From the NCBI GenBank assembly GCA_037444665.1, contig JBBILZ010000001.1, forward strand, positions 25,434-89,433: a DNA stretch of 64,000 nucleotides. The letters are read 5' to 3'. The position numbers and the translations under genes were made by a program. Shown one piece after another: positions 5,332 to 63,567 of this stretch (position 1 is its first letter; the number at the start of each line of letters is the position of its first letter). The notes beneath the pieces are model-generated. The model did no database searches, was not told the origin of the DNA, and saw only the letters and a program-made list of their open reading frames with translations. This DNA comes from a candidate division WOR-3 bacterium (lineage in GTDB: Bacteria; Hydrothermota; Tepidihabitantia; SM23-42; JAOAFX01).

Positions 5332-5372
5332 TTATAATTCAGGTATTCAGGCATTTTTGATTTTCAGGTTGT

Positions 5373-6442: not shown

Positions 6443-7615
6443 TTAAATTTTTTCAACCTTGTGATAATACATCACCACACGGCTGCGTCCAGCATTTTTT
6501 GCCTCATATAATGCCTTGTCAGCATTCTTTATCAATTCTGAAGGATTTAGGCCATCATCAGGATACGCAGCTACCCCTGCGGAAAATTCAATCTTTTTTT
6601 CACCAGGTGAATGGGTGGAGTCGTATATTTTAAAATTACTCAACAAATTTGCCACCATTTTTGCTGCTTCTTCTTTTTTCGTCTCCGGGAACATAACGAT
6701 AAATTCATCACCACCGTACCTACCTACCAGGTCTGTATCACGGAAATATTTACTGAAAATCTGTGATAGACGAATTAATAACTGGTCACCTGCCTGATGG
6801 CCAAATGTATCATTGAAATATTTAAAATTATCAAGGTCAATAATTGCTATAGCAAGACTGTGCTGGAATCTTTTTGCCCGGTTCAACTCTTCGGCAAGTT
6901 TATCCCTGAAGAATCCAATGTTATATAGTTTTGTCAGCGGGTCAATTGACGCAAGGTCGCGCATAATAGCTAAACTCATCGTATTCTGAAGTGCGGTTGA
7001 GGCGATCCGAACAACCACGCCAACAATGTTTTTTTCCCTTTCATCAAGGGAATTCTCGCGCTTGAATGCAATAACACCAAATAACCTATTTTGATACACG
7101 AGAGGATAACAAATATCAGGTGTAAAAAATATATATGGTTCTTTAATCCTTAAAACTTCTGATTCATGCGTTCCCAGAGGCATCCTTTTTTCAGCAGTCA
7201 CACCTACCCTGCCTTCGCCAACATCATAAACGAGTTTGGGCAACCAATTTTCATTCAATCCATGATGGGCAACGAGGTTTAATCGCTTCTCTTTTTCATC
7301 AAGAAAGAATAAAGCAACCTGGTCAGAATTGAGGTAATTATTCAAAAAACCTGTGATTTCCGTAGCAATCTCAAGTGGGTCTAATCGTGAGGTTAAACGA
7401 ATTATTGAAGAAAATAAGAGATTGTCCTGAGATGTGATATTGCGTAATTCATTGCGCATGCTAATATTTTCCTGTTTCTGTCGTTCCAGTTCATCGGTCA
7501 ATATCGCAATCTGGGACAATATTTCACTTTTTTTCTGTGTTTTTTGTGCCACAATGACTATGATAATTATCAAACCTATAACCAGAATTATGGCACCAGT
7601 AATTATATATTCCAT
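6443..7615 (-). CDS. diguanylate cyclase (TM, coiled coil, GAF-like, GGDEF)
   Basis: 390 aa. N-terminal TM helix and coiled coil, then a GGDEF domain with an intact RYGGDEF active site. Confidence 0.8.
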   Translation of the reverse strand: MEYIITGAIILVIGLIIIIVIVAQKTQKKSEILSQIAILTDELERQKQENISMRNELRNITSQDNLLFSSIIRLTSRLDPLEIATEITGFLNNYLNSDQVALFFLDEKEKRLNLVAHHGLNENWLPKLVYDVGEGRVGVTAEKRMPLGTHESEVLRIKEPYIFFTPDICYPLVYQNRLFGVIAFKRENSLDEREKNIVGVVVRIASTALQNTMSLAIMRDLASIDPLTKLYNIGFFRDKLAEELNRAKRFQHSLAIAIIDLDNFKYFNDTFGHQAGDQLLIRLSQIFSKYFRDTDLVGRYGGDEFIVMFPETKKEEAAKMVANLLSNFKIYDSTHSPGEKKIEFSAGVAAYPDDGLNPSELIKNADKALYEAKNAGRSRVVMYYHKVEKI

Positions 7616-7744
7616 TCTACACCAGTTATTTTATTATATACAATATTTTAAAAAAATCAATAGGTCACTCTTAGTCCCTTGTCATACTGTTATGCAACCC
7701 GTTTTCCCAATTTGTTAAATGGTAATTAGTAAATGATTAAATTT

Positions 7745-7945
7745 GGATAAGTAAGTAGTAAGTAGCGAATAACGAAACCAGATAAACTAAAAAGACTAAA
7801 TAGACCAGAGAAATCCAGTATCGAGTATCCAGTATCAAGGAAGCATCCGCGTCCTATAACCAATAACCATACTGGCTGCTATGCCCTACAACCTTAGACC
7901 TGTTTCTAACCAATCCCTGATATAGTGCCCGATAAATCGGGCGAT
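7745..7945. repeat. intergenic modular repeat element, copy A (inverted relative to copy B)
   Basis: Modules shared with 62634..62826 in reverse complement: hairpin gcccgataaatcgggc, agggcatag, cagtatggttattgg, tctctggtctatttagtcttttt, and a (TAC)-type tract gtaagtagtaagtag. Lies between the divergent GGDEF gene and rtcB. Confidence 0.6.
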
Positions 7946-8101
7946 TACACCTCTGGCAAAAGCAGATGATAAATCAGAAAACTCAGGAGAGTCAGAACCA
8001 TATTGACACAGACATATTTCAGTGTAGAATATATTGCCCATATTTAATATGGGTTCGCCAATCTATTTTTATAAATTTAAATATTGATTAAGGAGGTCAC
8101 C

Positions 8102-9558: not shown

Positions 9559-10926
9559 ATGATAGAAAAATTAAAATCCATGCTTTCAAAAATTGATACA
9601 GATTATGCAGACCTGCGTTATGAAATAAAAAATGAAATCAAGATTGTCCTTTCAGGTAAAGATATTGTTGAAGTGAGTTCCTGCCCGACTGACGGCTTTG
9701 TGCTCAGGGTGATAAAAAATAAATCATTCGCTTCTATTGCCTTCACAAAAACAGATGATTTTGAAAAGGCACTAAAGACTGCATTTAATAATGCAGAGGT
9801 AATGTCTAAAAACAATGGCATTGCCATTGAATTTGCGCCAGTTCCGATTGTTAAGGATTGTTTCATACCAGAATTAAAAGAAGACCCGTCTAAGATATCA
9901 ATAGAAGAAAAGATTGCATTGACCCGTCACTATAATGAAATTCCCTATCAGGTTCCAAATATAATGCATACAGATATTGCATACAATGAAGTAATCAGAG
10001 AAAAATATTTTGTCAGTTCTGAAGGCTCAGAAATATCTGAAAAACTTGTAACGACCCGCATTGCCGGTTCAATCATTAGCAGTGATGGCAAGATTATTCA
10101 AACAGTGCGTGTGGGTGTTGGTGGAAGTAATGCTTTCAATATACTACGAAACCGCGACCAGGAATTTATAAAAAAAGCAGAAATTGTCAGCAATCTATTA
10201 AAGGCAGAGCCAATCAGTGGCGGAACTTATAATGTCATTTTGAATCAGAGCCTGGGTGGAGTATTTACCCATGAAGCATTCGGACACTTCTCTGAAGCGG
10301 ATTTGATTGAAAATAATCCATCTATGCGGGAAAAAATGAAGATTGGTGCACAATTGGGTACCGAGATTCTCAATATTAAGGATGACCCTACTATTCCTGA
10401 CCAGCTCGGTCATTATAAATATGATGATGAAGGCGTGCAGGCAACACCGGTTCAGTTGCTAAAGAATGGTATACTTACAGGCAGACTCCATTCACGCCGG
10501 ACAGCAAAGGCATTTAATGAACCATTCAATGGTCATTGCGTTGCTGAAGATTATCATTTTGCACCGATAATAAGAATGGGAACAATATTTATCCAGCCTG
10601 GCAATAAATCATTTGAAGAACTACTCCAGATTTTGGGTGATGGCTTGTATCTCTGCGATGCAATGGGTGGACAGACCAGTGGCGAGAATTTTACATTTGC
10701 TGCCCAGTATGGCTATAGAGTAAAAGCAGGAAAAATTGCAGGACTCATACGCGACATAAATATTTCTGGAAATCTATACGATACCCTGAATAATATTCAG
10801 GCAATTGGCAATGATTTGAAATTAGGCGAAATTGGCGGATGTGGCAAAGGGCAGATCAATATCCGCTCTTGTTATGGTGCCCCTCATATAGTTATTAAAA
10901 ATCTCATTGTTGGAGGCGTTCAATGA
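9559..10926 (+). CDS. tldD: TldD-family metalloprotease
   Basis: 455 aa with the HExxxH motif (HEAFGHFSE). Translationally coupled to rtcB and to the following paralog. Confidence 0.75.
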   Translation: MIEKLKSMLSKIDTDYADLRYEIKNEIKIVLSGKDIVEVSSCPTDGFVLRVIKNKSFASIAFTKTDDFEKALKTAFNNAEVMSKNNGIAIEFAPVPIVKDCFIPELKEDPSKISIEEKIALTRHYNEIPYQVPNIMHTDIAYNEVIREKYFVSSEGSEISEKLVTTRIAGSIISSDGKIIQTVRVGVGGSNAFNILRNRDQEFIKKAEIVSNLLKAEPISGGTYNVILNQSLGGVFTHEAFGHFSEADLIENNPSMREKMKIGAQLGTEILNIKDDPTIPDQLGHYKYDDEGVQATPVQLLKNGILTGRLHSRRTAKAFNEPFNGHCVAEDYHFAPIIRMGTIFIQPGNKSFEELLQILGDGLYLCDAMGGQTSGENFTFAAQYGYRVKAGKIAGLIRDINISGNLYDTLNNIQAIGNDLKLGEIGGCGKGQINIRSCYGAPHIVIKNLIVGGVQ

Positions 10927-12279: not shown

Positions 12280-14049
12280 ATGGGCAGGATAAAAGAAAAG
12301 ATTGAACAGGCACCAGTAATGCCCGGTGTCTACATTTTCAAAAATTCAAAAAATAAACCAATTTATATTGGCAAGGCAGGCAATTTAAGGAACCGACTCA
12401 TTTCCTACCTTAATAATCCTGACCCACGTATAAAATCAATTATCAAATATGCTTGCGATATTGATACAATCATCACGAATTCTGATACTGAGGCATTGAC
12501 CCTTGAAGAATCACTGATCAAACTACACAGACCAAAATACAATATTCGTTTGAAAGATGATAAAAAATTTCCCTATTTGAAGATAACAATTCAAGAAGAA
12601 TTTCCAAGAATCTTTTTTACAAGAAATTTAAAAGCAGATGGCTCAATTATTTTTGGACCCTATACCAGCGCAAAAGCATTGCGCCAGACCCGGGATGCAC
12701 TTTGCAAGATATTCAAACTTGCTTCCTGCAGTAAAGATTTTTCCCGCACCCTTATCCGACCCTGTCTTGCTTATTCAATTGGTAGATGCAGTGCACCCTG
12801 TGTCCGTAATATTAGCCAGGAAGATTACCGACATCTTGTGCAAAAGGCAATAAGGTTTTTAAAGGGTGAGTCTGATGAGTTGACCAGAGAAGTTGAACGG
12901 TTAATGTGGGAACAGGCGAAAAAAGAAAATTTTGAAGGAGCAAAGATTTTAAGGGATGAACTCTTTGCCCTACGGAAAATCTCTCAGCGTCAGCAAATCG
13001 TTATCAGGGATAATATCAATCGCGATATAATTGGGATAGCCCGTAGCGGTTTCATTTGTATTGCCTGTCTTTTCAGGATTAGAGAGAACCGTTTACACTC
13101 AAAAGAAATTTATCATCTTAAAATAACACCCTCTGATACTGATGAAAATATTATTGCTTCATTTATCCGTTTAGTCTATACCCACATCTCATTTCTACCT
13201 GATGAGATTGTCGTCTCCAAATTGCCCAGTGATTGGGATATTCAAAAAAAATGGTTCAAAGAAAAGGGTTTTGATGTAAAGATAAGGGTTCCCGCTACTG
13301 AAGAGGTTAAGAATCTCTTTAACTGGGCAGTCAAGAATGCAGAGACCGAACTCGCAGGGCTGGTCATAAAAAAGAAAACTCCTACTCCTATCCTTGAATT
13401 ACAGAATATCTTGAAACTTGAAAAACCGCCCAGATGGATTGAGGCATTTGATATTTCAAATCTGAAAGAAAAATTTGCAGTTGGTGCTTCTGTCTCATTC
13501 TATGATGGCAGACCCAATAAACAGAGATATCGTCGGTATAGAATAAAACGAGTCTCGGGCCAGAACGATTTTGCAATGATAAAGGAAATTGTTGGCCGGC
13601 GCATTACTGATTTAAAAAAATCCGGTAAATTACCCGACCTTTTGTTGATTGATGGTGGTAAGGCACAGCAAAATGCAGCACTTGAATCAATAAAAGAGAT
13701 TGATTTACCCATTGCGGTATTTGCCATTGCCAAACGAAGTGACCAGCTCTATTATCCTGATGGAAAGGTTGTGTCAATTCCAGCACTATCAAGGAGTGTA
13801 GTATTACTGAAAAGGATCAGGGATGAGGCACACCGTTTTGCCATTGGTTACCATAGAAAATTAAGGGAAAAGACTATCACCAGTTCCATTCTTGATAAGA
13901 TTCCGGGCATCGGTACGAAAAGAAAGTTAACTCTGTTAAAATACTTTGGCAGTGTAGAAAATCTAAAAAAATCATCAGAAGATGAGATCGCCAGAGTGCC
14001 TGGTATTGGTAGAAAGACCGCGAAAATTATTTACGAAACATTGCATTAG
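12280..14049 (+). CDS. uvrC: excinuclease ABC subunit C
   Basis: 589 aa. N-terminal GIY-YIG domain (GVYIFKN...IYIGKAGNLRNR), a UVR domain and a C-terminal HhH. Confidence 0.9.
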   Translation: MGRIKEKIEQAPVMPGVYIFKNSKNKPIYIGKAGNLRNRLISYLNNPDPRIKSIIKYACDIDTIITNSDTEALTLEESLIKLHRPKYNIRLKDDKKFPYLKITIQEEFPRIFFTRNLKADGSIIFGPYTSAKALRQTRDALCKIFKLASCSKDFSRTLIRPCLAYSIGRCSAPCVRNISQEDYRHLVQKAIRFLKGESDELTREVERLMWEQAKKENFEGAKILRDELFALRKISQRQQIVIRDNINRDIIGIARSGFICIACLFRIRENRLHSKEIYHLKITPSDTDENIIASFIRLVYTHISFLPDEIVVSKLPSDWDIQKKWFKEKGFDVKIRVPATEEVKNLFNWAVKNAETELAGLVIKKKTPTPILELQNILKLEKPPRWIEAFDISNLKEKFAVGASVSFYDGRPNKQRYRRYRIKRVSGQNDFAMIKEIVGRRITDLKKSGKLPDLLLIDGGKAQQNAALESIKEIDLPIAVFAIAKRSDQLYYPDGKVVSIPALSRSVVLLKRIRDEAHRFAIGYHRKLREKTITSSILDKIPGIGTKRKLTLLKYFGSVENLKKSSEDEIARVPGIGRKTAKIIYETLH

Positions 14050-14664: not shown

Positions 14665-14775
14665 TATACCTCCTTTTAAGGTTAAATCCTACCATAATAA
14701 AAGGCAAAATCTGTGCCAGTCTTTTACTTGAAATTTCGTGCTAAAGTATGGTGCAGTTGTTCAAAAATTGTAATA

Positions 14776-19670: not shown

Positions 19671-20975
19671 TTATGATTTTTTATAACAGAGCCTTGCCCA
19701 GTCAAATGCCTCAACAACATATTTGATAAATCTTCTCAACTCATTCTGATGTTTTCTGAATGCGGTATTAAGGATATTCTCACACAATTTTTGTTCTATT
19801 TCAAAATCTACATATGCAGTTTTGTATATACACAATAGATTATCAAAGATTATTTCAAAATCACCCCTGCTGAATTTTCTTAACAACACTTTATTTTTAA
19901 TAAATCTCGTGGTCCAATCATCTTCCGCGGGGGTTGTGGCAATTACCAGTAGAATATTTGTTTCTTTATAGGCATAGGGCGTGGGACGAACACGATTATG
20001 TAGCAGACGGTCATCAATCTTTTTCATATCTTTGTCATTCAAGGCAATACGTACCAACCCTTCAAGAAATGCCATACCCCTTTGTTGGAAATGATACTCC
20101 CAGATATGGTTCAACTCCTCAAATTCATCAATGATAATTACCAGACCACTGAGTCCAATCTGTTTTGTCAGATAACTGATACCACTGAGAATATAATTAT
20201 AAAAATCTGCAGCCGTAGAAAAATCATACAATGCCGGGATCTGCTGTCCACCCTTTATCCGATAAGGTGCTTCATGGTCTGTTGCATATTCTTTTGTAGA
20301 TTCGCCTTCTATCCATTGATAAAAGACTTCACTATATTTATCATTATCATCTTGCATATCTTTAATTTTTTTGAGGACCGGGGTTAAAAAACAATGGTCA
20401 GGCATCGGTATTTCAACTGATTGCCTCAATAAGTCACGGAATCCATATTCACAATTATCTTTGATAAATCTTAAACTATACACAAGTTCGTGATATATTT
20501 TTTTCGGCCGATACGGTGGGGTTTCCTGAATATGGAGCACACAATAGGTTGTAGCCACACCCTGTCTTAATGATAGATGCCGGAGGTATTCAGCAAGATG
20601 GGTCTTTCCTGAGCCATATTCACCCTCAATTAAAAAGACACCACCGCTCCCCTTTTTTAAATTATCCAGTGATTTCTGAAACAGGTCTATTTCATATGCC
20701 CGACCAAAGGTAAAGTGTTCAATACCCTGATATGGAACAACGCCCATTCTGAGCGCCTCAATTATCCTTCGGGACGAAATTCTGTCTAATTCTATTTCTT
20801 CAACATTCAGTTTTTTTAGCCATTTTGTCGGAAGCCAGAGGACCAATCCACTACGGAATTGGACGCGGGACTCAATATCGTTCCATCTTGTTTCAAGGAC
20901 CACGCCTTCACCAAAAATATTATGGACAACTATGTTAAAATTCTTCTTGTTCAACTTCTTCTTTTTCTTTATCAA
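19671..20975 (-). CDS. P-loop NTPase of unassigned family (paralog A)
   Basis: 434 aa. Walker A GEYGSGKTHL near residue 120 and Walker B LVIIIDEFEEL near residue 285. The ~160-aa spacing is atypical for AAA+. Its N-terminus overlaps the 3' end of paralog B by 41 nt. Confidence 0.6.
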   Translation of the reverse strand: MIKKKKKLNKKNFNIVVHNIFGEGVVLETRWNDIESRVQFRSGLVLWLPTKWLKKLNVEEIELDRISSRRIIEALRMGVVPYQGIEHFTFGRAYEIDLFQKSLDNLKKGSGGVFLIEGEYGSGKTHLAEYLRHLSLRQGVATTYCVLHIQETPPYRPKKIYHELVYSLRFIKDNCEYGFRDLLRQSVEIPMPDHCFLTPVLKKIKDMQDDNDKYSEVFYQWIEGESTKEYATDHEAPYRIKGGQQIPALYDFSTAADFYNYILSGISYLTKQIGLSGLVIIIDEFEELNHIWEYHFQQRGMAFLEGLVRIALNDKDMKKIDDRLLHNRVRPTPYAYKETNILLVIATTPAEDDWTTRFIKNKVLLRKFSRGDFEIIFDNLLCIYKTAYVDFEIEQKLCENILNTAFRKHQNELRRFIKYVVEAFDWARLCYKKS

Positions 20976-22191: not shown

Positions 22192-22205
22192 ATCCTCTCA
22201 ACTCC

Positions 22206-22226
22206 TTACTACTTACTACCTACTAT
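22206..22226. repeat. TAC-tract repeat fragment (ttactacttactacctactat)
   Basis: Same motif as in the A, B and 57.66 kb copies. Overlaps the stop of the 22216..23097 gene and supplies the AAGGAG ribosome-binding site of NTPase B on the minus strand. Confidence 0.5.
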
Positions 22227-35291: not shown

Positions 35292-35400
35292 ACTAAATAA
35301 TAACTAAAAAAAAATAAAAGTCAAGAGAAAATGCACAGATAAATTTTTAGAGCTTTTCCTGAAAATGTAGTGTAGGGCTTTATGCACGTGAAATAAAGGA

Positions 35401-35458
35401 TATCAAGATATCAGAATATCAGAGGGAAGGGCATCAGGGTAGCAGGGTATCAGAGTAT
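35401..35458. repeat. intergenic repeat copy C, module 1 ((TATCA/CAGGGTA)n-like tract)
   Basis: tatcaagatatcagaatatcagagggaagggcatcagggtagcagggtatcagagtat. Related to cagtatcgagtatccagtatcaagg in copy A. Confidence 0.45.
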
Positions 35459-35519: not shown

Positions 35520-35700
35520 CTAAAAGAATCGTTTATCAGTTTATCCGCCAAACTGTATGGCGGACGAAAATCGCTTCGGTTAGGTTTTTGTAGTCGTTCA
35601 ACGACAAACGACACCGTTAGACGAAACGCATCTCTAAACCGACAAACGTTTAACGATTTACGTGGGTAACTGAGATTTAAATATTGGTGTGGATTATGTT
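35520..35700 (-). ncRNA. candidate structured RNA (unclassified), a GC-richer island in an AT-rich divergent intergenic region
   Basis: Locally higher GC and several short stems (ccgccaaactgtatggcgg, cgtttatcag...cgtttaacga, repeated gacgaaa/acgacaaacg). The only ORF is a weak 77-aa one on the minus strand. Strand and boundaries are guesses. Confidence 0.2.
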
Positions 35701-35728
35701 CCCCGATTCCTCCTGATTCCATTTCAGC

Positions 35729-35766
35729 ATTTAGGTATTTAGGCATTTTGGACTTTTAGGCATTTT
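35729..35766. repeat. intergenic repeat copy C, module 2 (tttaggcattttggacttttaggcatttt)
   Basis: 29/29 identical to 62664..62692 in copy B. Confidence 0.6.
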
Positions 35767-35814: not shown

Positions 35815-35833
35815 TATGCACAATTTTTGTGCA
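35815..35833. promoter_or_regulatory. candidate operator: 19-nt perfect palindrome ATGCACAATTTTTGTGCAT about 80 nt upstream of the FN3-lipoprotein operon
   Basis: Core identical to 14776..14794. Confidence 0.45.
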
Positions 35834-35911
35834 TTATTTATGAAAAACTCCCGAAATTTCAAGGCTTTAACCTGGCACAGGATTTGCATATTATATTGGC
35901 AGAGGTGCCAA

Positions 35912-36682
35912 ATGAAAAGAATAAAAGATTCCCTTCAATTGATTCTGGTCGCATCCGGGCTAATTTTTTCGCCCTGCTGTTATGAAGAAGCAGACAATGA
36001 GCCACCTGCAGTTCCCAGAGGTTTGAATTCCATTACTGGTGACGAACAAGTGATGCTCACCTGGTATCAGAATACTGAACCTGACCTTGCTGGTTATAGG
36101 GTCTTTCGCAGTCCTGCACCAGAAGGACCTTATTATCTTATCGGTGAAACAAACTTAGATTATTTCCTTGATTATGGTTTAATGAACGGACAAACCTATT
36201 TCTATGCAATCTCTGCTTATGACATACATAATAACGAAAGTGAACTTTCTTATGAGACGGTCTATGATACACCCAGACCCGAAGGATTTGATGAAAAAAT
36301 CTTTGATTATACTGAATACCCTGCGTATGCTGGTTGGGACTTCAGCAATTATACAGTAGTTCCATACAATTATTCAAACTGTGATTTTTATTTTGGTTAT
36401 GACGATTACAATAATTCTTATTATTTCTTCATTGGTAAGCCCGGTGGATTGATTCAGGATATGGGTTATACCTATTCTTTTGATGAGATTGGTTATGCGC
36501 CTGATGATGGTTGGTCTCCAACCGGCATTGCACAAGCCATTGAAGGCCATACCTATGTTATCTGGACCTGGGACAACCATTTTGCCAAAGTCCGTATCAC
36601 ATCAATAAAATCTGATTATGTCGTGTTTGACTGGGCATACCAGGTTGACCCGGGTAACCCGGAACTGGTGAGGAAAAAATGA
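35912..36682 (+). CDS. secreted or lipoprotein-like protein with a fibronectin type III domain
   Basis: Start set at MKRIKDSLQLILVASGLIFSPCC, which has an AGAGGTG ribosome-binding site. The ORF track starts at 35816, inside the operator. FN3-like segment PPAVPRGLNS...LTWYQNTEPDLAGYRVFRS...TYFYAISAYD. Confidence 0.55.
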   Translation: MKRIKDSLQLILVASGLIFSPCCYEEADNEPPAVPRGLNSITGDEQVMLTWYQNTEPDLAGYRVFRSPAPEGPYYLIGETNLDYFLDYGLMNGQTYFYAISAYDIHNNESELSYETVYDTPRPEGFDEKIFDYTEYPAYAGWDFSNYTVVPYNYSNCDFYFGYDDYNNSYYFFIGKPGGLIQDMGYTYSFDEIGYAPDDGWSPTGIAQAIEGHTYVIWTWDNHFAKVRITSIKSDYVVFDWAYQVDPGNPELVRKK

Positions 36683-57600: not shown

Positions 57601-58127
57601 TAAGAAAATCGCCCTATCATTTTATTCGTGGTATCATTCCTTTTGCAGTATTCCCCTATTTTCACTTACTACTTACTACTTACTACCTACTACTTACTAA
57701 CTGCTGCGGTTACTCCACCCGTTCATTATTACCTGGATATATTAAAAAGGTCCATATAAAAATCTTTGAAAACCAGACCCTTAAGCCTGGGTTGGATGAA
57801 ATAGCAACCCAGACGACGACTGAAGCATTTCGCAATAATTCAGGTTTGAAAATTGTCAGTGAAGATGAAGCTGATATTGTTGTCAGTGGCAAAATAACTG
57901 GTTTTTCAAAAGACCCTTATGTATATACTGGTGCCCTTGATGTTTCACAATATAAAATTACTGTCAAATTCTCGGTTACCTGTTTTGATCAGGTGAAGAA
58001 TACAATCTACTGGCAAGGTGATATTTCAGATTGGGCAATTTATACTACTGATGAAGATGCAAGTATCAAAGAAGCAACCAAAAGAGCTGCGGAAAGGCTC
58101 GTAACAACTATTTTAACTAACTGGTAA
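57597..58127 (+). CDS. LptE-like LPS-assembly lipoprotein
   Basis: 176 aa. CGYSTRSLLP resembles LptE CGWHLRD after the lipobox. The hydrophobic N-region FHLLLTTYYLLLT is encoded by the TAC-tract repeat. Start overlaps the upstream stop (ATGA). Confidence 0.4.
   Translation: MIRKSPYHFIRGIIPFAVFPYFHLLLTTYYLLLTNCCGYSTRSLLPGYIKKVHIKIFENQTLKPGLDEIATQTTTEAFRNNSGLKIVSEDEADIVVSGKITGFSKDPYVYTGALDVSQYKITVKFSVTCFDQVKNTIYWQGDISDWAIYTTDEDASIKEATKRAAERLVTTILTNW
57664..57700. repeat. TAC-tract repeat (acttactacttactacttactacctactacttactaa) inside the LptE-like ORF
   Basis: Same family as 7751-7765, 22206-22226 and 62801-62825. Confidence 0.55.
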
Positions 58128-62199: not shown

Positions 62200-62706
62200 T
62201 TATCTGTGTTGAGGACATATTACTGCACCATTTTCAGAATTATATATATATGTCTGCCCGGTCACCGGACAAAATGTTTCCTGAGCACTGATATCATTCA
62301 AGTCTTCAAGTTTTTCTGGATATTTACCATTCTCTGTATAATATATTTGTATTGCCATTTCTATTTTTCGTAGCTGTGCCTGGCACTGTAAAATATTTGC
62401 CCTTTCTGGCGGTGATACTGCAGCCTGATTTTCTCGGCTTCCCCGTGTATATATTATACCGGCTTTATAGACCAGTACTGCTACAATAATCAGTGCAATG
62501 ATGAGCACAAGAAATGCATAAGTCCTCGCTATTCCTCTTTTCACAATGGTGATTATAAACAATTTATCATAAATGTCAATTATTGATTTAGCTGAGGTCT
62601 CTCCACTATTCTGATTTATCTTTCCAATTGTAGTTGCCCGATTTATCGGGCGTAGATTAATTTTTAGGCATTTTGGACTTTTAGGCATTTTAATTTTACA
62701 GGGCAT
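62200..62706 (-). CDS. hypothetical membrane protein with a pseudopilin-like segment (start uncertain)
   Basis: A TM helix YAFLVLIIALIIVAVLV, then LRKIEMAIQIYYTENGKYPEKLEDL resembling the GspG/T4-pilin conserved region. The 5' 70 nt of the called ORF lie in repeat copy B, so the true start is probably the internal GTG at ...VKRGIARTYAF. Confidence 0.35.
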   Translation of the reverse strand: MPCKIKMPKSPKCLKINLRPINRATTIGKINQNSGETSAKSIIDIYDKLFIITIVKRGIARTYAFLVLIIALIIVAVLVYKAGIIYTRGSRENQAAVSPPERANILQCQAQLRKIEMAIQIYYTENGKYPEKLEDLNDISAQETFCPVTGQTYIYNSENGAVICPQHR

Positions 62707-62826
62707 AGATACCGGTATGGTTATTGGGCATGGTCTATTTAGTCTTTTTGGTCTATTTTGTTTCTCTGGTCTTTCTGTTTCTGTTATTTTCTACATACTA
62801 CTTACTACCTACTACCTACTCATCCA
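62634..62826. repeat. intergenic modular repeat element, copy B
   Basis: Hairpin gcccgatttatcgggc, tttaggcattttggacttttaggcatttt, agggcatag, ccggtatggttattgg, ggtctatttagtcttttt and a TAC tract. See copy A. Confidence 0.6.
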
Positions 62827-62888
62827 CCCATTCCCTGATTCTACTTGACACCCCTGTTAATACCATACTTGCCTGAAAGCCTTTTTTA

Positions 62889-62896
62889 TGTAAAAT
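62889..62896 (+). promoter_or_regulatory. extended -10 promoter TGTAAAAT, leaderless (truB ATG 6 nt downstream)
   Basis: TGnTAAAAT at 62889-62896, ATG at 62902. Confidence 0.4.
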
Positions 62897-62901
62897 TAAC
62901 T

Positions 62902-63567
62902 ATGCCTGAGATAAATCATATAATTCCTGTTTACAAACCTGTTGGGCCGGCAACATTTGATATAATTAGAATCTTCAAGAAAAAAACCAATTACCAGGGC
63001 AAGATAGGCCATGGTGGTTCACTTGACCCATTTGCCTGTGGCGTTGTGCTTCTGCTCTTAGGAAAAGCAACCCAGCGATTTGAAGAAATATCATCATGGC
63101 AAAAAGTTTATATTGCTGGCGCCAGATTGGGCGCAACTTCTACAACCGGAGATGTTGTAGGAGAAATAAAGACCGACCCATCCAAAAACCATTCCCAAAT
63201 AGGACGCCATTTATTAGAAAATACCATAAAAAACTTCATTGGTGAAATAGAGCAAAAAGTCCCCATTTATTCAGCGGCAAAATTTCAAGGCACCCCGATG
63301 TACAAACTCGCGCGCAATGGCATTGAAATAGAAAAGACAAAAAAGGTAAAAGTTTACAATATTGAATTTATTTATTTGAAATATCCACTATTAACCCTGA
63401 AAATAACCTGTGCCGGTGGAGTTTATATTCGCCAGCTGATACAGGATATAGCTGACAAAATTGGTGAGAAGGCATTCTTATACTTCCTTGAACGTTGCCA
63501 GGTCGGTGAGTTTACAAAAGAAAATTGTATTAGTATTGATAATTTTGATAAAATTACCATTCAATAA
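62902..63567 (+). CDS. truB: tRNA pseudouridine(55) synthase
   Basis: Start at MPEINHIIPVYKP. The ORF track begins at 62845, inside the repeat. TruB motif HGGSLDPFACGVLL. Confidence 0.85.
   Translation: MPEINHIIPVYKPVGPATFDIIRIFKKKTNYQGKIGHGGSLDPFACGVVLLLLGKATQRFEEISSWQKVYIAGARLGATSTTGDVVGEIKTDPSKNHSQIGRHLLENTIKNFIGEIEQKVPIYSAAKFQGTPMYKLARNGIEIEKTKKVKVYNIEFIYLKYPLLTLKITCAGGVYIRQLIQDIADKIGEKAFLYFLERCQVGEFTKENCISIDNFDKITIQ

Follow-up and report, generated by a model that had tools for sequence, protein, structure and literature searches.

Tandem arrays of very short units have been described from the intergenic regions of several bacterial lineages. In the summary of Mrazek (2007) given in PMC4679880, they include the STRRs of cyanobacteria and long simple sequence repeats (LSSRs), in which units of 5–11 nt lie head to tail, mainly between genes; as summarised there, the units are mostly 7 nt long, arrays of several types may adjoin, and their occurrence across lineages is sporadic. 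Repeats of the heptamer TAACTGA are found in Beggiatoaceae, Cyanobacteria and Bacteroidetes, and in Bacteroidetes mixed heptamer assemblages occupy long intergenic regions that are shorter and repeat-free in close relatives (MacGregor 2015, PMC4679880). Contigs end within these repeats, and some arrays lie just upstream of start codons (PMC4679880). Geobacter metallireducens carries dozens of multicopy intergenic ‘global regulator binding sites’ of three to five tandem units, which are hepta-, octa- or nonanucleotides (GTTGCTYN, TCTCCGTS[Y], MTYCTGA) and are confined to this one species, its sister species being without them (Aklujkar 2009, PMC2700814). For both the TAACTGA and the Geobacter MTYCTGA arrays, a role as regulator binding sites was proposed by the authors (PMC4679880, PMC2700814). 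Ever since cyanobacterial STRRs were first described, it has been asked what makes, and what reads, short hepta-, octa- and nonamer arrays in intergenic DNA.

Other intergenic repeats are modular. The BIMEs of Escherichia coli are composed of alternating REP types with fixed linkers, and the pneumococcal BOX element comprises boxA, boxB and boxC modules with a stable fold. GTAG REPs are defined by a 6–13-bp stem, a 2–3-nt ‘TY’ loop and an unpaired GTAG tag, which in some families is separated from the stem by a dinucleotide; they are usually located downstream of genes and not between divergent promoters (PMC3733652).

Here, we describe three intergenic islands, A, B and C, in a 64,000-nt stretch of DNA (the window, in what follows) from a candidate division WOR-3 bacterium with a GC content of ~38%. 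A full-text literature search returned no paper on such repeats in WOR-3. The islands are a known kind of bacterial repeat DNA, here in a new lineage of uncultured bacteria, and by comparison with the literature, STRR/LSSR arrays, TAACTGA assemblages, Geobacter multicopy arrays and GTAG REPs appear to be the closest precedents. Our main reading, to which we assign a probability of roughly 0.55, is that the three islands are mosaics of repeats, neither a gene nor a single discrete transposon, and that they consist of recently gained copy-and-paste repeat DNA, which lengthens through slippage and is tolerated where it does no harm, with any role exerted at the level of DNA.

A preliminary description, made from the letters of the window alone, had proposed a modular intergenic repeat family, which proved to be real for all three islands. 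The modules that it quoted are present where it had placed them, far above the chance level estimated from dinucleotide-preserving shuffles. The hairpin GCCCGATTTATCGGGC occurs at 7927–7942 (minus strand) and 62636–62651 (plus strand), with 0.2 matches expected by chance; the central module AGGGCATAG-N6-GTATGGTTATTGG at 7860–7887 (minus) and 62700–62727 (plus), with 0 expected; and TGGTCTATTTAGTCTTTTT at 7789–7807 (minus) and 62731–62749 (plus). An identity of 29 nt claimed between B and C was borne out by the 29-mer TTTAGGCATTTTGGACTTTTAGGCATTTT, which is exact at 35738–35766 in C and 62663–62691 in B. Likewise, A is largely the reverse complement of B, as had been stated: six colinear exact blocks (12, 16, 9, 13, 19 and 11 nt) total 80 nt, whereas shuffles averaged 5 nt and never exceeded 23 nt, and the best other tile of the window reached 30 nt. 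These blocks span 7979–7750 (A, minus strand) and 62609–62808 (B), about 230 nt, and take in TTCTGATTTATC, which lies left of the hairpin, so that the homology exceeds the coordinates first given. The two islands are paralogous: a stretch of at least 230 nt is present in both, with its modules in the same order.

Low-complexity likeness without conserved order, or an assembly artefact, which the preliminary description had weighed against itself, is most improbable as an explanation, and is excluded for the composite elements. The TAC tract is indeed generic simple sequence, since it has matches in contigs of unrelated giant viruses and phages; the degenerate nonamer pattern, too, appears in unrelated viral contigs. 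However, the hairpin with its flank, the central module and the 29-mer are exact, with about 0 matches expected, and the modules of A and B are colinear. Furthermore, the sequence is not an assembly artefact, because Logan contigs, an independent assembly of run SRR11582170, reproduce it identically.

Most of the modules are short tandem arrays. TRF detected them at 7750–7836, 35400–35458, 35727–35765 and 62662–62820, with periods of 7, 8, 9, 17 and 18. The array classes comprise CTACNTA heptamers (period 7), GATACTG heptamers (period 7, in A only), ATATCAGN/AGGGTATC units in C (period 8), GGCATTTT(A) units (period 8–9) and TGGTCTATT-type nonamers, for which a period of 18 is a possible reading too. 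Units of 7–9 nt combine invariant cores (CTAC, ATCAG, TRGTYT and GGCAT) with variable spacer bases. Repeats are lacking only from the hairpin with its flank and from the ‘central’ module.

Island A, defined from the promoter scan and the colinear blocks as the full gap between two outward-facing -35 hexamers (7661–8002), is read on the minus strand, and its part homologous to B lies at 7750–7979. Its REP-type hairpin, GTAATC-GCCCGAT-TT-ATCGGGC (7927–7948), has a degenerate tag (GTAA for GTAG). This is followed by the central module (7860–7887), the heptamer array (GATACTG/GATACTC) that is present in A only (3.4 units, 7813–7836; TRF and alignment), a nonamer array of the TRGTYTNTY class consisting of TGGTCTATT TAGTCTTTT TAGTTTATC TGGTTTCGT (7766–7813; TRF), and a CTAC-core heptamer tract of about 2.3 units (7745–7765; TRF and colinear blocks).

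Island B, delimited by alignment and promoter scan as the segment that is missing in relatives (62595–62846, plus strand), carries the GTAG-tagged hairpin GTAGTT-GCCCGAT-TT-ATCGGGC (62630–62651). A GGCATTT(T/A) array of 8–9-nt units follows (62662–62692), which contains the 29-mer identical to that of C, and then the central module (62700–62727), a TRGTYTNTY-class nonamer array that also reads as 2.9 units of 18 nt (62731–62782), and a CTAC-core heptamer array (CTACNTA) of 4.3 units (62788–62822), the three arrays having been delimited by TRF. A small hydrophobic peptide or toxin was considered as a product of B and rejected: the 43-codon open reading frame at 62717–62848 stops after 11 codons in A.

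Island C, also on the plus strand, is composed differently. An ATCAG module ([N3-ATCAG]x3, GGGAAGG, [ATCAG-like]x3) lies at 35401–35458 and a GGCATTT array with the shared 29-mer at 35727–35766, both detected by TRF. By direct reading, a CG-rich stretch at 35540–35665 contains two short palindromes and irregular repeats with an ACG core. This stretch occurs in the window only, has no BLAST matches and is missing in both relatives available for this site (L209 and L210). Within the ATCAG module, GGGAAGGGCATCAGGGTAGCAGGG (35424–35447) has four G3 runs and is a potential G-quadruplex. Its centre, GGGAAGGG, fits the E. coli KOPS consensus, GGGNAGGG. This KOPS-like GGGNAGGG centre is a lead only, as are HutP- or TRAP-like readers of spaced triplets.

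This anatomy altered two earlier claims. Instead of one discrete element with fragments, the islands are a mosaic of independent module classes, most of them tandem arrays of 7–9-nt units. A ‘tatca’ tract reported as common to A and C stands as a shared core, but there is no alignable sequence around it, and the period is 7 in A and 8 nt in C.

Compared with STRRs and LSSRs as summarised in PMC4679880, the likeness of the islands is close: TRF shows short head-to-tail units in mainly intergenic arrays, with several types adjoining. The window nevertheless departs from that summary in having units of 7, 8 and 9 nt that pair an invariant core with a variable spacer and are not near-identical, and in combining these units in a conserved order in paralogous copies. 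With the TAACTGA repeats, the repeats of the window have in common the mixture of repeat types, the shorter and repeat-free regions of relatives, contig ends within arrays and arrays close to start codons. The reverse complement of TAACTGA, TTATCAG, contains the same ATCAG core as the (G/A)ATATCAG units of the window (PMC4679880). In contrast, the exact heptamer is missing from the window, where the units are GATATCAG/AATATCAG (8 nt) and AGTATCN (7 nt); the period in C is 8 and not 7, and an architecture of three units, GGGNRGG and three further units is not described in PMC4679880. The Geobacter sites resemble the islands as intergenic tandem hepta-, octa- and nonamers that are missing in relatives, but they are mostly pairs on opposite strands, have other units and have no reported REP hairpin (PMC2700814).

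The hairpin links the islands to a second class of repeats. In both A and B, GCCCGAT-TT-ATCGGGC has the palindromic stem of a GTAG REP, and the likeness to GTAG REPs and REPINs (Di Nocera et al. 2013, PMC3733652; Bertels and Rainey 2011, PMC3116915) extends to the 7-bp stem, the TT loop and, for the unit of B, an unpaired 5' GTAG with the intervening dinucleotide. The tag reads GTAGTT in B and GTAATC in A, and GTAG is also present in the copies in L080, L141, L189 and IMG/VR. In contrast to the described families, the units in the window are single, one tag is degenerate, and the hairpins lie between divergent promoters and inside a larger composite. There are two copies in the 64 kb, one per island in A and B, without the inverted doublets of REPINs; one Logan contig (L206) starts exactly at the GTAGTT of B (62630). 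Elsewhere, L080 matches the motif at 24 of 25 bases, and L141 and the WOR-3 relative L189 carry it with a compensatory change from G:C to A:T. It also occurs in 13 IMG/VR contigs, in many of them as a REPIN-like inverted doublet.

The doublet, which is present in unrelated contigs, has the form GTAGTT-GCCCAATTTATTGGGC-AATTGT-GCCTGATGAATCAGGC-AACTAC at L141 2603–2652 and at the IMG/VR loci L193–L205. It is nearly identical among many contigs of 52–58% GC, sometimes with two per contig, and in L199 a (GTAT)n run adjoins the GTAG tag. A proposed homology between the central module and a REP half-site (TTATTGGGCA) was too short to claim.

Among the guesses in the preliminary description, ‘REP/BIME-like’ came nearest, given the GTAG-tagged REP form of the hairpin. 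The BIME part did not stand: BIMEs alternate REPs of opposite orientation with conserved linkers, while each island has a single hairpin. With BIMEs and BOX elements the islands do share the mosaic, modular build of an intergenic repeat, with sub-modules present in varying numbers and combinations, although neither of those consists mainly of 7–9-nt tandem arrays, as the islands do.

Syntenic relatives, located by protein searches, carry shorter intergenic regions at all three sites. The region between the GGDEF and RtcB genes (site A) measures 486 nt in the window, 215 nt in L184–L187 (RtcB 92% identical) and 171 nt in L188 (90%). That between the left gene and truB (site B) measures 357 nt, compared with ~120 nt in L207 (TruB 85%) and 87 nt in L208 (78%), and that of site C 620 nt, compared with 334 nt in L209 (82%) and 285 nt in L210 (83%). 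The orthologous regions are thus 237–335 nt shorter, and the flanking promoters are kept. At site A, both promoters align in all genomes and ~330 nt, including the island, are missing in L184–L188. At site B, L208 (about 9914–10000) has its two divergent -35 boxes abutting (TGTCAATTATTGACT). Across sites A and B, the -35 boxes of relatives are 20–65 nt apart or abut. At site C, a sigma-54-type promoter and its upstream palindrome are conserved in L209 and L210, and the arrays are missing. Further searches for the locus with RtcB, in genome and metagenome contigs, recovered only relatives of 76–77% identity, without the elements.

The comparison of presence and absence recommended in the preliminary description therefore gave a clear result, with A, B and C all missing at orthologous sites in relatives of 78–92% protein identity. 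On this alignment evidence, all three islands were gained in this lineage after its split from those relatives, with the promoters left undisrupted.

Clean presence and absence is also what would be expected if a MITE or a decayed insertion-sequence remnant had inserted at each site, and in L208 a single TTGAC stands in place of the TTGAT (62589–62593) and TTGAC (62847–62851) that border B on its left and right. We consider this origin quite improbable. The flank match of B is the 4-nt TTGA, too short to count as a target-site duplication, and the junctions of A are not definable in the alignment with relatives. As the preliminary description had noted, terminal inverted repeats are missing, none of 10 nt or more being found at the ends of A or B. 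There is no conserved open reading frame, that of 43 codons in B being cut to 11 codons in A, and C has single modules in common with A and B but not shared ends. In the 92% relative L184, a fragment of an ISL3-family transposase lies at 13027–13224, downstream of tldD/pmbA, where the window has uvrC; this site is a local rearrangement between close relatives.

Promoter scans place A between a minus-strand promoter at 7660–7633 (GGDEF gene) and a plus-strand promoter at 8003–8030 (rtcB), and B between a minus-strand promoter at 62579–62552 (12/12) and a plus-strand promoter at 62869–62896 (truB). Since both pairs face outward, A and B lie upstream of both of their flanking promoters. According to open reading frames and promoter scans, A, B and C are all located between divergently transcribed genes, as had been reported for the window. 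A general preference for divergent regions, which had also been suggested, does not extend to relatives: L013 and L104 carry the same module types between convergent or co-directional genes.

Several other roles tied to transcription or replication were considered and rejected. The hairpin lacks a T-run on both strands and is not an intrinsic terminator; Rho-utilisation sites would suit tracts rich in C and poor in G, but in B and L013 the tracts have no consistent orientation to transcription; and GC skew merely tracks gene orientation, against a replication origin or iterons.

Some features of the surrounding genes are worth recording. The genes flanking B look leaderless, with -10 hexamers that end 5–7 nt before their starts (GTG at 62544 on the minus strand and ATG at 62902). 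Near C, a sigma-54-type promoter (TGGCAC-N5-TTGCA) has an NtrC-like palindrome (TGCACAA-N3-TTGTGCA) ~40 nt upstream, these elements occupying 35817–35833 and 35873–35888, and precedes a hypothetical gene for a 256-aa FN3-like protein (35912–36682).

The islands could alternatively act as RNA, as transcribed 5' leaders or as antisense or sponge sRNAs, with arrays bound by an RNA-binding protein, for instance S1, Csp, CsrA or a ring protein specific for spaced triplets. At two intercistronic sites, start codons do have lone arrays in GUAG sense immediately upstream, which relatives retain at the orthologous sites, and this location agrees with that reported for TAACTGA repeats (PMC4679880). For the islands themselves, a role as RNA is unlikely. 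A and B are upstream of both flanking promoters, and neither a good-scoring sigma-70-like internal promoter nor a terminator was detected within them. The fold of B scored z = +0.69 and -0.37 against shuffles on its two strands; Rfam returned 0 matches at the gathering threshold, with noise only at E ≤ 10, and the orientation of arrays relative to neighbouring genes is mixed. These results speak against the sRNA or promoter cassettes that the preliminary description had entertained, and the folding check that it proposed identified the hairpin as the sole stable helix, the remainder of B folding no better than shuffles.

The same kinds of modules recur in related WOR-3 genomes at non-orthologous loci. 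L188 has a ATCAGGGT-type array and a nonamer array of 7.7 TGGTTTCTT units in another divergent intergenic region, while in L104 (RtcB 77%) the region downstream of uvrC holds a TAC-like tract together with GATACAT heptamers and ACTAGAAAG/ACTAAATAG nonamers. In L013 (RtcB 69%, with a higher GC content), most of the larger intergenic regions hold arrays of 7–9 nt, some of them between convergent and co-directional genes. The ATCAG architecture of three units, GGGNRGG and three units is present in the window and at three L013 loci; over these, 22 of 24 units keep the ATCAG core unchanged, whereas the spacer bases vary freely. The last three bases of the CTAC heptamer are NTA in the window, TYK in L013 and L040, and AAC in L208.

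L013 also has dispersed composites of its own, so that mosaic repeat islands characterise the wider lineage. An identical 24-mer, ATCAGGACATCAGGGGATCAGTGG, occurs there at 7531–7554 and 20470–20493, and a common CTGATCC(R)CTTGCCTTC junction at 7550–7570 and 14750–14770.

Scans for the exact pattern of the central module gave 0 matches in the genome and the metagenome contig collections, so that the ‘family’ rests on the three islands, the small arrays in the 64 kb and the assembly breaks described below. The ATCAG pattern of three units plus centre gave 0 matches in IMG/VR. As a probe, three copies of the degenerate nonamer TRGTYTNTY were unspecific and were discarded, their >120 IMG/VR matches being most likely T-rich coding repeats.

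Because only the spacers vary, slippage alone is a poor explanation, and either recognition of the cores or a generating process with sequence specificity is favoured. Across the genomes compared, conserved cores with variable spacers fit better with a selected binding function than with purely selfish or neutral DNA. It is possible, if less probable than our main reading, that the islands are selected protein-binding platforms, such as operators or loading sites for nucleoid proteins that bind cooperatively along 7–9-bp repeats in the manner of ribbon-helix-helix proteins, and that they insulate or co-regulate the divergent promoters. This alternative overlaps with our main reading and does not exclude it. 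In its favour, the invariance of ATCAG cores and the arrangement of three units, GGGNRGG and three units are kept in L013 despite its different GC content; CTAC and TRGTYT cores are kept in four genomes, with a spacer ‘dialect’ specific to each; and an ATCAG/TCAG core also occurs in the TAACTGA and Geobacter MTYCTGA repeats (PMC4679880, PMC2700814). Against this, the same promoter pairs exist without islands in close relatives, where the islands are evidently not needed, the flanking genes are functionally unrelated, L013 has the same arrays between convergent genes, and periods of 7–9 bp do not hold sites on a single face of the helix. A still broader and more doubtful proposal is that the 7–9-nt arrays constitute a lineage-wide vocabulary of binding platforms for oligomeric proteins, with an ATCAG element that crosses phyla (TAACTGA, MTYCTGA), and that the hairpin and (GTAGNNN)n tracts are substrates of one HUH/RAYT-type enzyme, which would assemble and mobilise the mosaics.

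Under our main reading of copy-and-paste repeat DNA, new copies of the composite would arise elsewhere through exchange between repeats, be it recombination or gene conversion, or through single-strand mobilisation via the REP hairpin by a hypothetical RAYT or other HUH-type enzyme. Arrays would then lengthen and shorten through replication slippage, from which breaks in short-read assemblies within arrays would follow. Such breaks are observed: Logan contigs L001 and L103 break at 7793 and 7818, at the junction of the nonamer and heptamer arrays of A, another break at 62630 coincides with the hairpin of B, and a further Logan contig ends within another CTAC array just beyond the end of the window. 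They reflect either additional genomic copies or length variation in the population. The islands would persist at sites where insertion does no harm, and their immediate mechanical effect would be to move two overlapping divergent promoters 250–330 bp apart. Any function would probably lie at the DNA level, where invariant cores at a spacing of 7–9 bp suggest cooperative binding of a hypothetical abundant small DNA-binding protein.

For the wider question of what makes or reads such arrays, the window offers a compact test case, with dated gains at three promoter pairs and empty sites in close relatives, cores that are conserved while spacers drift, and a physical link between array classes and a REP-type hairpin. 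There are also practical consequences. The islands break short-read assemblies of WOR-3 genomes, and spurious open reading frames arise, as with a listed frame of 168 codons (62200–62706) that is an over-extension through island B, its true start aligning with that of a 115-aa gene in L208. Finally, arrays can be translated upon landing in signal peptides.

Outside the islands, the window contains further small arrays. TAC heptamer tracts lie at 22200–22226 and 57660–57707, in addition to that of B (62789–62822). The two lone tracts had been taken for fragments of the large element, but they are independent arrays of the same unit type, one of them within a coding sequence and the other over a stop codon and ribosome-binding site. 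A GGCATTT-like array of TTCAGGY units (5337–5372, plus strand; TRF) fills a 41-nt intercistronic gap and is conserved in L184 and missing in L188. The CTAC heptamer tract at 22200–22226 (plus strand) overlaps both the stop codon of one gene on the minus strand and the ribosome-binding site of the gene that follows, and its mRNA therefore reads GUAG; it is kept at the orthologous site of L210 (3510–3545) and degenerate in L209. A second start-codon-proximal CTAC/GTAG array occupies an intercistronic position at L206 2470–2507 (approximately 65100–65136 in window coordinates, just past its end), and on the mRNA both arrays have GUAG sense and immediately precede start codons. At the orthologous intercistronic site of L208 (12195–12215), two copies of CTACAAC are retained, and the spacer letters and copy number vary by relative. 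The tract at 57660–57707 (plus strand) is translated in the signal peptide of the lipoprotein LptE (...FHLLLTTYYLLLTNCCGYS), and the L208 ortholog, which is without the array, is 10 aa shorter. A CTAC array at L040 3739–3766 is likewise translated, in the signal peptide of an unrelated Omnitrophota lipoprotein (...FLSTCYFLLATFLCGC).
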